Positions 33,461 to 40,470 of a stretch of DNA of 64,000 bases are shown one piece after another (the stretch's first letter is position 1; every line of letters begins with the position of its first letter). The stretch comes from an uncultured delta proteobacterium (GTDB taxonomy: Bacteria; Desulfobacterota; Binatia; Binatales; Binataceae). The notes beneath the pieces are model-generated. The model was not told the origin of the DNA. It saw only the letters and a program-made list of their open reading frames with translations, and ran no database searches. The stretch spans positions 1 to 64,000 of the forward strand of contig CAVQEQ010000002.1 in the NCBI GenBank assembly GCA_963711565.1, read 5' to 3'. Both the position numbers and the translations under genes were made by a program.

Positions 33461-33490
33461 TTGACAGTAACTACGGAACTTCCGTAGTCT
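33461..33490 (+). promoter_or_regulatory. Sigma70-type promoter with palindromic operator for the brnT operon
   Basis: TTGACA 33461-33466, TAGTCT 33485-33490, ACTACGGAA-C-TTCCGTAGT 33470-33488. Confidence 0.7.
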
Positions 33491-33495
33491 ATTTG

Positions 33496-33780
33496 GTGTG
33501 CCCAGAATTCGAATGGGACGACAGCAAGGCCGCGAAAAATCTGCTGAAGCATGGAATCACGTTTGCTTTAGCGATTTCTGCGTTCCGCGACACCTTTGCG
33601 GTCGAGTATCCCGACGACCGGATGGACTATGGTGAAGACCGATTCATCCATATCGGTATGGCGGCAGGGCATTTATTGACAGTTGCTTTCACCGAACGGG
33701 CTGACAGCACCCGAATCATCTCCGCCCGTAGATCGACGAAGTATGAAGAAGAAATTTACCACAGCCAAAATCCGCGCTGA
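33496..33780 (+). CDS. brnT: BrnT-family ribonuclease toxin
   Basis: FEWDDSKAAKNLLKHGITF, DYGEDR, RIISARR. Confidence 0.92.
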   Translation: MCPEFEWDDSKAAKNLLKHGITFALAISAFRDTFAVEYPDDRMDYGEDRFIHIGMAAGHLLTVAFTERADSTRIISARRSTKYEEEIYHSQNPR

Positions 33781-36700: not shown

Positions 36701-37297
36701 CTTCATGTACTCGCCAAGCTAGCAGCCCTTGACCACATGACGGGTGGACCTTTTGTGTCGCGGCTAAAAATTCGCGAAGAGTCGGTACCTTCCGGTCGTT
36801 TCCTCTTCGTATGCGAGCTCTGGGAAGCTATCGGTGCCCAGCGAGATACAAGATTGCGTGGCTTCGCTTGGGATTTGGAGCGCGGAACTTTAGCGTCCGA
36901 CGTGTCTGCCAACCTCATAAAGCTCTTGAGCCGAACTGCTGATTCATCATCACCACCCGATCCGATCGTCGCCATACATGAGGGACTCGCAGCCGTGGAC
37001 GAAGCCTCACGTGGCAGCCGGCTGGCAGAAATTGAGGATCTAAGGCAGCGGAACGAAGCAGTGATTGCCAGAAAACTCGCCAGTCTCGATGCATACCATC
37101 AGAACCGCCTTGCGAGAGTGGATGCTGAACTTCAGCAAGCGACAGACGAGCGAATCATTCGGATGAAGACTGCAGAACGCGCTCGGATCGAAAGCGACCA
37201 CGAGGAGAAGCGGCGCGAAATTGAAGCGGCCCGCAACGCCGACATCGCCAGTAAGCGAATCGCCGCCGGCGTGCTGGAAATCAACCATGGCAACTAA
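33743..37297 (+). CDS. Fusion: XRE-HTH antitoxin (HigA-like) + SNF2/RapA-type helicase
   Basis: [26 protein letters not shown], then [42 protein letters not shown] in one frame. Confidence 0.88.
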   Translation: [1184 protein letters not shown]

Positions 37298-40200
37298 TTA
37301 CGACAAGATTAGAGAGGAAAACATTCGGGGATACGGCGAATTTACTCACCATCTTGAGCTTCTCGGGCGACTGTATGCAGACCCCACTCACTTCATTTTC
37401 GAGCTTCTCCAAAACGCAGAGGACGCGGGGGCAAAAAAGGTTAAATTCTCTCTTTATCCGGACCGCTTGGAGTTCCTAAACGATGGCAGATCCTTTACGG
37501 AGGCAGATGTTCACGGAATCTGCGCTATCGGCAAGGGCACCAAAGCTCAAGACCTCACGCAAATCGGAAAGTTCGGGATTGGCTTTAAGTCGGTCTATGC
37601 GCACACCTCTAATCCGCAAATCTACTCAGGCTCGGAGCAGTTTCGTATCGAACACTACGTCCGACCCTATGCAGAGGACCGTCGCTCAGTGCCATCTCCC
37701 TGGTCGACACTCTTCGTTCTTCCATTTCATCAAGCATCGGTTTCTTATGCACAGATAGCAGCAAAGCTAGAACGCCTGGACACGACACCGCTCCTGTTTC
37801 TCAAGAGCCTTCGAGAAATCGAATGGTCGCTCGAAGGCGGACAATCCGGCCTGTTTATCCGCGAGGCCGAAGCTTGTGGTACCGGGCAATTAACCCGCAT
37901 CGTGGCCCAGAGGGGTAAAAAAGAGACAGACGAGGAATGGCTTCTTTTCGCGCGGCAATTGCCCCTAGACGCCTACCCACACGACAGCCTGCTTCCCGAG
38001 CACAAGAAGCTCCGGGTCGAGATCGGGTTTCTTGTCCGACGAAGCTCACCCGATTCCAAAATCACAATCACGCGTATTCCGTCATCGCCGCTGGTCGTGT
38101 TCTTTCCAACTGAGAAGCCCACAAATCTCGGTTTTCTCATTCAAGGTCCGTTTCGTACCACACCGACGCGAGAGAACGTTCCGCCGAATGATCCTTGGAA
38201 TGGAAAACTAGTCCAGGAAACAGCCGAACTTGCGGTGGACGCTCTGAATCGGTTACGCGATGTCGGTTTGCTATCGGTCAGTGCGCTGGAGGCACTTCCG
38301 ATTCACGCCGAAGCCTTCCCCGAAGGAAGCATGTTTCGTCCTATTTTTGACCGGGTCCGCGCGGCGCTCAAAGACGAGCGCCTATTGCCCAGCAACGACG
38401 AAACTTTCACTCCTGCCAAAGATGCCAAATTAGCGAGGGGCGGTGACCTGCGAGAGCTGCTGCCTGACGAGCAACTCCAAGACCTGTATGGTGGCGAACG
38501 CAAATGGAAATGGCTCTCCCATCAGATAACGAAAGATAGAACACCCGGTCTCTGCCAATACCTGACCGAAGAGCTAGCCATCGAAGAGATCGAACCTGAG
38601 ACGTTCGCGCGCAAACTAAACAAACCGTTTCTCGAGCGTCAGTCGGATGAGTGGATAGTTCGGTTCTACAGTTTTCTAAACGAGCATAAGGCTCTGTGGC
38701 GGTCATCCCCCTACGGTGGCGGACCGCTTCGAAATGAAGCGATCATACGACTTGATGACGACTCTCACGTCACACCCTTCCGTGACGGCAACACGCCGAA
38801 GGTGTACCTGCCGACGGCTGAAGGCAGCGACTTACCGACGGTCAAGGGAACGATCACGCAGAATCAAGACGCGGTGAACTTCTTACAAGCACTCGGCCTG
38901 AGAGAACCTGATCTTGTTGCTGAAGTTATCGAGCGAATTCTTCCAAAGTATGCCGAGGGGAAAACCATACCCGCCGATGAACACGCGCGTGACCTCAGGC
39001 GTGTCGTCGCCGCACTAAAGGCCGTTACGCGTGACCGTGCCGCCGCTCTTGTTGAAGCTGTTTTTGAATTTCCGTTCCTACACGCAAGGAACGCCGCTAC
39101 CGCCAGCATAGCGTTTAAGAAGCTCGGCGACACCGAATTCGAGACCGAGACGACAAGGCTCTTGTTCGAAGGCAATCCAGACATTTGGTTCGTCGATGAC
39201 GATTTTTCGAACGATGCGTTTGCCCACGTTGAAGCCTGGGGCATTGTCTCCACTCGAATTAGTCCTTGTGCAATCGGCGCGCAGGGAGATGTTTCGCTGC
39301 AGAACACATGGGGATCGCACAAGCGAGGATTGGGTGGGTTTGATGGTCGATGCGACATCACCGGGCTGGCTCATGCCCTGAAGACCATCACCACCGCAAA
39401 AGCGCGCTGCCTCTGGAACGAAATTCTCCCTGGACACAGTCGCCACATCCGTGGCGTCGTCGAGTCGTCCTCGCGGCAGGACTATCGCGATTCCGAGAAG
39501 ACGATCGAACTGTTGACTACCGGGCGATTCATCACGAAGTCTTCTTGGCTGCCCGGCCCTGACGGTAAGTTTTTTCAAGCTAGCGCTCTTACCTTGGATG
39601 AGTTGCCGGAGGACTTTATCCGGAACTCTGACCTGGCCAGATTTCTCGGCATGAAGCCGACCATACCTTCCAACCTCGACAAGGAGAGTCTGTTCCGAGC
39701 TGCAGGCTTGATGCCCGAGGCCGCCCGTTTCGCGAAAGAGAACACCGACCTGATCGAACGCCTCGCAAAACGCCCCGACCTGCTCGAACAGATCCGCGAA
39801 AAACTTGAAGAGAGCAGGGACAACCTTCAGCACGAAGCGAAGCCTCTGGACTATCGCGCCGAAATCGCCGAAACCTTTTCTCGCGAGGCTCGAAGAAGGA
39901 GCCGACGACACAGATGGTTCGGCTACAACTGGCCCGGTACCAAATCCCGAACGGCGGCGGCAGAAACTACAAGAAGAGATTCAAGCGGCGAAAGGACGAG
40001 AACCGAGGCTGGTCGAACGCTTCACAAGGGTACCGAGAAAAGTTTGGGAGTTGAAAAACGGCGCAGTTCGAGCGTTTCTAGAGGAGCAATACCACGGGCG
40101 CTGTCAAATCTGCGATTTCACGTTCCCCGAGCGTAGCGGGCGCCGATACTTCGAGGGAGTTTACCTAGTGTCGCGTACGCGAGCGCGCTGGATCGACCGC

Positions 40201-40470
40201 GCAGGCAACGTTCTTTGCCTCTGCGCAAATTGCTCCGCGAAGTTCGTCCATGGGGAGGTTCTTGCCGATGACCTCCTGGATCAGATTGACGGCTTTCGAC
40301 CGTCTAAAGAAGGTGGCCCGATCAGCCCGATGCTTCATATCGTCCTGTGTGGAGAATCCACAGATATCCGCTTCACCGAGCGTCACCTTTTGGACCTTCA
40401 GCAACTTGTAAAAGCAAACGGCAATCCAGCAGATCCTGAATTGATTGAGCCGGGGGAACGGCCATCCTGA
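37287..40470 (+). pseudogene. Sacsin/NOV-like GHKL ATPase with C-terminal HNH-like domain; +1 frameshift near 39876-39890
   Basis: ELLQNAEDA, NDG, GKFGIGFKSVY, IQGPFRTTPTRE; second frame gives YHGRCQIC...GNVLCLCANC. Confidence 0.8.

Follow-up and report, generated by a model that had tools for sequence, protein, structure and literature searches.

An XRE antitoxin fused in frame to a DrmD-like helicase behind brnT: a recurrent architecture and a possible dead-man switch on a likely anti-phage operon

What does it mean for a toxin-antitoxin (TA) pair when the antitoxin and a large helicase become one chain? This question is raised by a locus on contig CAVQEQ010000002.1 (C2) of an uncultured member of the Binataceae (assembly GCA_963711565.1; 4.84 Mb in four contigs), the first 64 kb of which, hereafter the window, is the stretch of DNA analyzed here. 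A first-pass annotation had described an XRE antitoxin running without a stop into an SNF2 helicase and overlapped by BrnT, and we recovered exactly this arrangement: a single unbroken frame of 1184 aa (33743-37297, forward strand) overlaps brnT by 38 nt and carries the Pfam domains HTH_3 in front and SNF2/Helicase_C behind. Its parts are the following:

33493-33780, forward: brnT, predicted RelE-fold RNase toxin with a TTG start at 33493 or a GTG start at 33496 (PF04365, 95.7 bits against a Pfam cut-off of 34.5, E 2e-27; Protein Data Bank relative 7vd7)
33743-34096, forward: antitoxin head, aa 1-118 of the fusion, with the toxin-binding part at about 1-62 and the XRE helix-turn-helix (HTH) at 63-118 (HTH_3)
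34097-34156, forward: 20-codon linker of constant length, derived from the former antitoxin tail plus spacer (dN/dS 0.35-1.8)
34157-37297, forward: DrmD/RapA-like SNF2 helicase, aa 139-1184 (PADLOC DrmD, 388 bits; nearest solved structure RapA)

The head is 55-75% identical to about 70 free antitoxins (128-155 aa) located behind brnT and has a free homologue of solved structure (2ppx, Atu1735); the frame has no Pfam match to the RHH domain of canonical BrnA (PF14384), HTH_3 standing in its place. In the helicase, Walker A (262), DEAH (379), motif III, and motif VI are all intact. No start is evident at the junction, as had been noted: codons 106-150 contain no ATG, and the only alternatives, GTG 146 and TTG 148, lie inside the helicase's first domain. 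An alternative start candidate is found within the head (Met30 at 33830, with a strong Shine-Dalgarno sequence). AlphaFold2, run on the single sequence of aa 1-194, gave a model whose quality was too low to be usable (mean pLDDT 46.5).

The antitoxin-helicase fusion is a real, old, and recurrent architecture with homologues in independent assemblies and in other genera. A search with the first 400 residues returned three fused clusters at 100, 91, and 80% identity together with an unfused close relative (P0004), and independent assemblies carry the fusion down to 78% identity. Eleven of 12 cluster members examined (from Logan, JGI, NCBI, and ENA) are fusions, some of them alternative starts of one gene, and the remaining one is an unrelated 53-aa protein. 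Within the family, the fusion occurs in 3 of 165 genomes, spread over three genera (including G164 and G052), and is absent from all 46 further genomes in the window's genus. The 80 best metagenome loci include L017, in which the fusion is complete and in frame, and L018, L023, and L024, which read through the join and reach the contig end without a stop; most of the others encode free antitoxins of 128-155 aa behind brnT. In the independent assemblies, neither a stop nor an indel interrupts the junction, the identical in-frame join being present in Logan, JGI, NCBI, and ENA records, in G164 and G052, and in the metagenome loci. No fusion was found in plasmids with P0141, and no extended antitoxin among 48 viral loci.

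The pattern of substitution suggests that both halves of the protein have been maintained. Nei-Gojobori dN/dS was calculated pairwise among the window's locus, G164, G052, and L017, with the toxin compared only among the first three (0.16-0.26) and L017, whose 5' end does not read through, set aside. The toxin-binding part (0.21-0.31), the HTH (0.04-0.07), and the helicase (0.08-0.12, at a dS above 1.2 versus L017) are all under purifying selection, as is the toxin, and the linker evolves near neutrally. A predicted complex between BrnT and residues 1-194 of the fusion received a score of 0.69, with the best control at 0.02; 51 of 78 solved pairs but just 2 of 108 mismatched ones attain the mark of this test, which TA pairs can pass by likeness. 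Runs agreed on at least 68% of contacts, and the partner pLDDT was at least 79. The predicted contacts involve head residues 3-76 and 112-118 and cover BrnT residues 75-84, and the model lists no BrnT contact with the helicase's first domain, which according to the tool's note is not evidence in either direction. Selection on the toxin-binding part, together with this model, supports the prediction that the fused head binds and neutralizes BrnT.

The order of events can be read from a lost start codon. The ancestral helicase ATG, six codons before a conserved Phe, corresponds to codon 134 of the fusion; it is present in L018, L024, and L025, with Met likewise in the unfused P0004, and is replaced by AGT, ACC, ACA, or ACG in the window (AGT), G164, G052, L017, and L028. 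Since the ATG is intact in some of these loci but changed in others, read-through came first and the separate start was lost later.

Upstream of brnT, two features bear on how the unit may be controlled:

33461-33490, forward: likely sigma70-type promoter, read from the sequence (TTGACA, 18 nt, TAGTCT)
33470-33488, no strand: palindrome with perfect 9-1-9 symmetry, the likely operator for the XRE head, between TTGACA (-35) and TAGTCT (-10)

A consensus promoter scan returned 0 sites, and brnT is probably leaderless. The first-pass annotation missed the palindrome; the 64-kb window contains 4 perfect ones whose arms reach 9 or more, two of the 4 being one nested site. Fused loci (G164, G052, L018, L023, and L024), the relics L028 and L054 described below, and about 30 free loci all have it in front of brnT. 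This conservation between -35 and -10 in fused and free loci alike, with the strong constraint on the HTH, supports the earlier suggestion of autoregulation. Moreover, DNA likeness to G164, G052, L023, L028, and L054 starts at 33458-33470, and the flanks differ; with the left edge of this mobile cassette at the promoter in five other loci with different flanks, the promoter, toxin, and fusion travel as a unit.

Behind the fusion lie two parts of a third gene and the remnant of a fourth, the latter also missed in the first pass:

37287-40136, forward: N-terminal frame (949 aa) of a Tiamat-like GHKL/sacsin ATPase (PF25794; NF047352; PADLOC TmtA, 229 bits)
39895-40470, forward: HNH-like C-terminal part of the ATPase gene, in a separate frame owing to one extra base near 39893
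40473-40597, forward: broken Mrr_N-like stub, with a DNA match to L098 up to 40597 and stops in all frames

A search with 35 aligned unfused helicase parts recovered 76 genome loci from many phyla. With nine loci added and 18 with a broken or cut helicase excluded, a Tiamat-like ATPase follows the helicase in 67 of 67 intact-frame loci (63 intact or broken, 4 cut by the contig end, 0 absent). The first-pass annotation did not recognize the architecture as a named system, but the two-gene core is not unnamed: judged by sequence, it is a widespread and already known pair that matches the helicase-partnered Tiamat-like class of bioRxiv 10.64898/2026.09.30.754977 (this and the papers below are cited for the portion of their text that was available). 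Its genomic context and the Tiamat literature make an anti-phage role likely.

The N terminus of this helicase family serves as a slot with changing contents. A related extension is present in 47 of the 76 genome loci, and all six sampled are Swt1-like HEPN domains (HEPN_Swt1, Pfam); elsewhere the slot holds an HNH (P0061, weak), a PLD-like domain (P0044, weak), or no domain, and HEPN and antitoxin occur together in 0 rows. Antitoxin heads on this helicase family come from four unrelated families: XRE (twice), DUF2442 (P0008 and P0043), the N-terminal half of BrnA, and the N-terminal half of a Gp49 partner. A toxin gene is observed upstream only for the window's lineage, L076, L111, and L208, the DUF2442 fusions and most of the partner proteins described below being known from protein only. 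In L111, brnT is followed by the first half of BrnA fused to the helicase, without the RHH half that is present in the free homologue L189, and this type of head is common to five clusters at 76-100% identity. In L208, a Gp49 toxin gene precedes the first part of its antitoxin; in our reading, the free homologue L217 extends into an HTH and L208 does not. Toxin binding is therefore what the heads have in common, the DNA-binding part being missing from both half-heads: each head places a toxin-binding element in a single chain with a defense enzyme, under the promoter of the toxin.

In a FastTree phylogeny of 82 rows, the antitoxin label takes five changes. The unfused P0004 is the fully supported sister of the window's clade. 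The same tree rejects a direct replacement of HEPN by the antitoxin in this lineage, as there is no HEPN in the window's subclade. The same XRE antitoxin also heads a second DrmD-like lineage that is about 29% identical (P0139 group). P0137 combines the antitoxin, linker, and first helicase residues of the window's lineage with another DrmD-like helicase (37% identical), indicating that the helicase was exchanged while the head stayed. Other small genes are found around the same family: a PemK/MazF pair lies directly upstream of an unfused helicase-Tiamat-like operon (L114:7200-8000), and PIN-type genes lie between helicase and Tiamat-like gene in L111, L118, and L210. In L131, L138, L153, L174, and L160, a short helical N-terminal piece on the helicase stands behind a sigma-like gene (PF04542 in L160 only), and these are possible anti-sigma fusions to the same helicase family.

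Heads of this kind are not confined to one helicase family. When the antitoxin was compared with longer proteins, 57 of 74 matches had at least 100 extra C-terminal residues, and these fall into 34 partner families. Ten of the 34 match PADLOC (E<=1e-12; P0199 scanned at 1e-45 only), namely four DrmD-like groups, a PLD-SNF2 type (with brnT upstream in L076), a Z1 helicase, AbiGi, PDC-S39, an Argonaute-associated nuclease, and PifA; six of the 34 are SF2 helicases. Around free pairs (n=51), only 1 of 38 co-oriented downstream open reading frames (ORFs) matches PADLOC, a generic radical SAM protein (Fisher p 0.002 versus 10 of 34, against what is a rough control, as discussed below), and the Pfam matches of these ORFs are mostly metabolic. 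Fusion is a minority state of the antitoxin family, whose top 150 representatives are mostly 83-220 aa long. Separately, conserved antitoxin fusions to domains of 126-265 aa that match neither Pfam nor PADLOC (P0149 group, P0143, P0171, P0175, P0179, P0184, and P0186; one of these clusters has 24 members) contribute candidate defense domains.

What, then, does the fusion do? We favor, at slightly less than an even chance, the view that it gives the helicase/Tiamat-like operon, which is likely anti-phage, a dead-man switch under its own regulation. A brnT-XRE operon would have come to lie upstream of the helicase, and the antitoxin stop would then have been lost. The head would still hold BrnT, as in the predicted complex, and its HTH would repress the shared promoter, so that the helicase would control how much of itself and of its partner is made. 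Antitoxins of type II systems are labile, and the toxin is freed once host expression stops. Because antitoxin and helicase form one chain, a helicase that is destroyed, sequestered, or not resupplied (through phage shut-off, an anti-defense protein, or proteolysis) would leave the operon derepressed and BrnT free to impose a back-up arrest. The unconstrained linker and interchangeable partners suggest that this coupling would be generic, needing no specific helicase-toxin contact and involving no tuned trigger. In favor of such a switch, the fusion persists to a dS above 1.2, the operator is kept, and the internal ATG is lost in the main clade. Purifying selection on the toxin and on both parts of the head, the predicted complex, the recurrence of antitoxin heads, a slot that elsewhere holds HEPN RNases, the skew of partner families toward PADLOC matches, and the precedents of ietHAS (PMC13069673) and Pez-Ham (PMC13064477) point the same way. 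The guard idea put forward in the first-pass annotation is plausible and is strengthened by the recurrence of antitoxin heads; its variant in which activation of the helicase releases the toxin finds no support, since the linker evolves near neutrally.

Several observations weigh against a dead-man switch. Viable accidents must keep the toxin-binding part, so half-heads are expected by chance too. The toxin itself gave no defense in Pez-Ham (PMC13064477). The window's subclade has no HEPN member, HEPN being limited to the sister clade, and 15 of its 24 rows are headless, so an RNase is not essential. Heads are also lost: L209 has lost its head, and the BrnA head is missing from 7 of 14 members with a visible N terminus (15 listed, in a 42-member cluster at 90%). 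Sigma-factor partners fused to the same helicase family (L160) point to a general capture of upstream regulators. Among the partner families, 24 of 34 have no defense match, and a few look metabolic or frameshifted; the neighbor control is rough (shadow ORFs, short contigs), and mobility could explain the skew toward defense proteins. Finally, the relics have shed the helicase and not the antitoxin: L025-L027 and L028 retain the antitoxin and first helicase domain and then stop, and L054 stops within the linker. P0137 and P0141 end mid-domain. One and the same aldo-keto reductase gene lies beside all five relics (L025-L028 and L054), and brnT and the operator survive in L028 and L054. As these relics with a toxin but no helicase show, the presence of the toxin does not oblige a locus to keep the helicase, and the proposal of TA-enforced retention is contradicted by this decay, the antitoxin being N-terminal and surviving the helicase's loss. 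A rule that truncation is tolerated only at domain edges was considered and rejected; it fits L025-L028, L054, and P0248 and fails on P0137 and P0141. As a side observation on decay, the Gp49 toxin and antitoxin half of L216 (G353) are decayed, whereas G321 carries a whole headed operon at the same place in the chromosome.

We regard as rather doubtful the wider proposal that an antitoxin fused before a defense enzyme is a general, repeatedly evolved design, in which carriers such as SNF2 helicases, PifA-like NTPase, Argonaute-associated nuclease, AbiGi, and PLD helicase would bear an RNase toxin instead of a fused HEPN and let it go once the carrier is attacked or activated by phage.

The alternative that survives best, although unlikely, is that the fusion serves expression control only: a captured autoregulated promoter would keep a costly helicase/Tiamat pair low, and BrnT would be a passenger that persists through its own addiction effect. 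No part is more constrained than the HTH, the operator is kept, regulators of XRE and sigma type are found upstream of relatives or fused to them (L106, L160), Hachiman expression is lowered by PezAT, which itself gives no defense (PMC13064477), and fused C-REase proteins keep both functions (PMC3850674). However, the independent BrnA and Gp49-partner half-heads, which have no DNA-binding domain, cannot repress, regulation needs no protein fusion, and the slot is elsewhere occupied by nucleases.

Quite unlikely is a tolerated accident, in which a mobile defense pair landed behind a TA operon and a read-through, harmless because both ends are permissive, was frozen by loss of the helicase ATG, the two halves working independently. 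The near-neutral linker, the ATG kept in intermediate loci, the gain and loss of heads, the 34 unrelated partner families, and the minority state of the fusion (0 of 46 other genus genomes) all suit such an accident; its persistence to a dS above 1.2, five origins on one helicase family, and a partner skew toward defense proteins and SF2 helicases (6 of 34 families) do not.

Very unlikely, in our view, is active gating, in which the helicase would sense phage DNA and its ATPase cycle would strip BrnT off the head, the toxin acting as effector in trans where relatives fuse a HEPN RNase. The slot equivalence with HEPN and the precedent of ietHAS (PMC13069673) favor it, as does the Tiamat-like gene, which is broken in 4 of 7 antitoxin-headed loci (the window, G164, L017, and L111; intact in G052, L208, and the P0397 contig) versus 4 of 57 others (nominal p 0.003), as though helicase and toxin suffice, an excess that is suggestive only, since there are kin among the seven loci and an assembly slip may have caused the break in the window. 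The unconstrained linker and the interchangeable toxins and heads are unlike a tuned mechanism. That an assembly artefact united two genes is scarcely credible: a suspicious one-base insertion lies 5.8 kb downstream in this assembly of four long contigs, but independent assemblies and other genera, which repeat the join, all but refute it, and a frame change is seen in just 1 of 58 other tested loci of the genome.

Known systems offer close but not identical parallels to this operon. A full-text search of the literature, covering the running text of freely accessible papers and preprints, turned up no account of a defense helicase with an antitoxin fused to it, and by analogy the fusion is a variant on known TA-coupled defense (Pez-Ham, ietHAS). 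In Pez-Ham (PMC13064477), a type II TA operon likewise heads and represses a helicase-based defense operon (PezAT over Hachiman), but with four separate proteins, a zeta toxin and Hachiman, and no defense by the toxin in E. coli. In ietHAS and DarHTG (PMC13069673), a TA pair works with a helicase, and ietH is DrmD-like SNF2, essential for defense and toxic when mutant; there, however, the helicase is separate, the toxins are a protease or an ADP-ribosyltransferase, and the available text mentions no Tiamat-like gene. C-protein/restriction endonuclease fusions (PMC3850674) also place an upstream HTH autoregulator in frame with the controlled enzyme, both functions being retained, but they are toxin-free and belong to type II restriction-modification. 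BrnT/BrnA (PMC11980606) shares the order of toxin first and antitoxin second and probably the autoregulation, whereas the window's antitoxin has an XRE HTH in place of RHH and bears a 1046-aa helicase; the fusions listed in the available part of that source are toxin-antitoxin, not antitoxin-enzyme. Single-gene toxin-antitoxin fusions are another near case, as are back-up RNases in BREX-like systems (PMC12839542).

With respect to the downstream genes, Tiamat-like types IV-A and IV-B (bioRxiv 10.64898/2026.09.30.754977) have a GHKL/sacsin ATPase, an HNH-like tail without catalytic residues, and a helicase neighbor. As here, the type IV helicase stands beside the ATPase, often nuclease-fused and sometimes with a regulator nearby; in contrast, the available text describes no antitoxin-helicase fusion, its sole mention of "antitoxin" concerning PIN toxins. 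Type I-K in the same preprint shows the reverse arrangement, a RelE-like toxin fused to a helicase. Strict Tiamat (TmtA) shares the N-terminal Hsp90/GHKL ATPase but not the DUF3883 nuclease. The helicase's best profile is DrmD of class 1 DISARM, but its NCBIfam DrmD score (319.6 bits) is below the cut-off of 610, and no drmA, drmB, drmC, or methylase gene was found among the ORFs of the cassette, of G052, or of L017. Unlike HEPN-SWI2/SNF2 fusions (PMC3710099), to which relatives carrying Swt1-like HEPN on SNF2 correspond, the window's lineage has no HEPN.

One helicase family thus offers matched natural constructs, with no head, a HEPN head, a full antitoxin head, and a head without the DNA-binding part, which can separate regulation, addiction, and guarding, three debated roles of TA systems in defense islands. 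The fusion would tie the amount of helicase and the release of toxin to the helicase's own fate, and it provides a handle on helicase-partnered Tiamat-like systems, whose defense role is likely rather than demonstrated. If the toxin contributes to defense, new anti-phage proteins can be sought by a simple rule, an antitoxin joined to a large uncharacterized protein that is encoded behind a toxin gene, with a reach that includes the 24 of 34 partner families matching no PADLOC model.

The third gene had been described as a GHKL/sacsin ATPase with an HNH-like tail, overlapped by the helicase gene. The overlap (11 nt, with a start at 37287) and the ATPase, with N-terminal GHKL motifs at 39, 65, and 94, stand; the single open frame does not, as it is right to aa 865-869, out of frame after, and split near 39893. 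The split is apparently recent, or an assembly slip, because the continuous sibling P0397 (1062 aa) is 96.8% identical over aa 1-865 and 93% over aa 870-1062; in G052, too, tail and ATPase share one frame. The tail matches nothing in Pfam, PADLOC, or NCBIfam, and may be of the HNH type by its two CxxC pairs, the usual HNH histidines being missing. The C-terminal PD-(D/E)xK (DUF3883) nuclease of strict Tiamat gave no match here or in the intact G052 protein, both of which have a Cys-rich tail instead. In G052, a complete Mrr_N-like gene (PF14338, 212 aa) follows the Tiamat-like gene.

The cassette lies within what is likely an integrative conjugative element, spanning bases 1 to about 45,150-45,180. 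The putative element has trb genes (trbB/trbE/trbL) at its left, an ArdC-like gene (23967-24839), an excisionase and tyrosine integrase (43403-44962), and a 60-base stretch that repeats the 3' part of tRNA-Thr(CGT) at about 45,120-45,178, the complete gene being on contig C3; GC content is 56% inside and 62% beyond. It also bears type III CBASS, Menshen, and a cytosine-methylase system (PADLOC/NCBIfam), placing the cassette in a defense-rich cargo region. The CBASS genes (5884-10808) encode TRIP13, two HORMA proteins, a cyclase, and NucC and are preceded by a divergent small gene and an IrrE/CapP-like peptidase. The methylase system (11437-22434, reverse strand), to which PADLOC, NCBIfam, and Pfam gave no named system, comprises a cytosine methylase followed by an ATPase-like gene, two genes without family match, a protein of 1737 aa whose end is RuvB-like (AAA), and a MutY-like glycosylase. 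Menshen (NsnA, NsnB, and NsnC; PADLOC) is at 25049-28369 on the reverse strand. An Rfam scan of 28-46 kb gave no match. Closer to the cassette, two Fic-domain genes and a TPR gene (29480-33395) are divergent from it, and part of a 141-aa ORF (28935-29360) is also found just upstream of the cassette in G164. Two more brnT genes in the genome (G000 C3:887452 and C4:1223259) are each accompanied by an ordinary short antitoxin.

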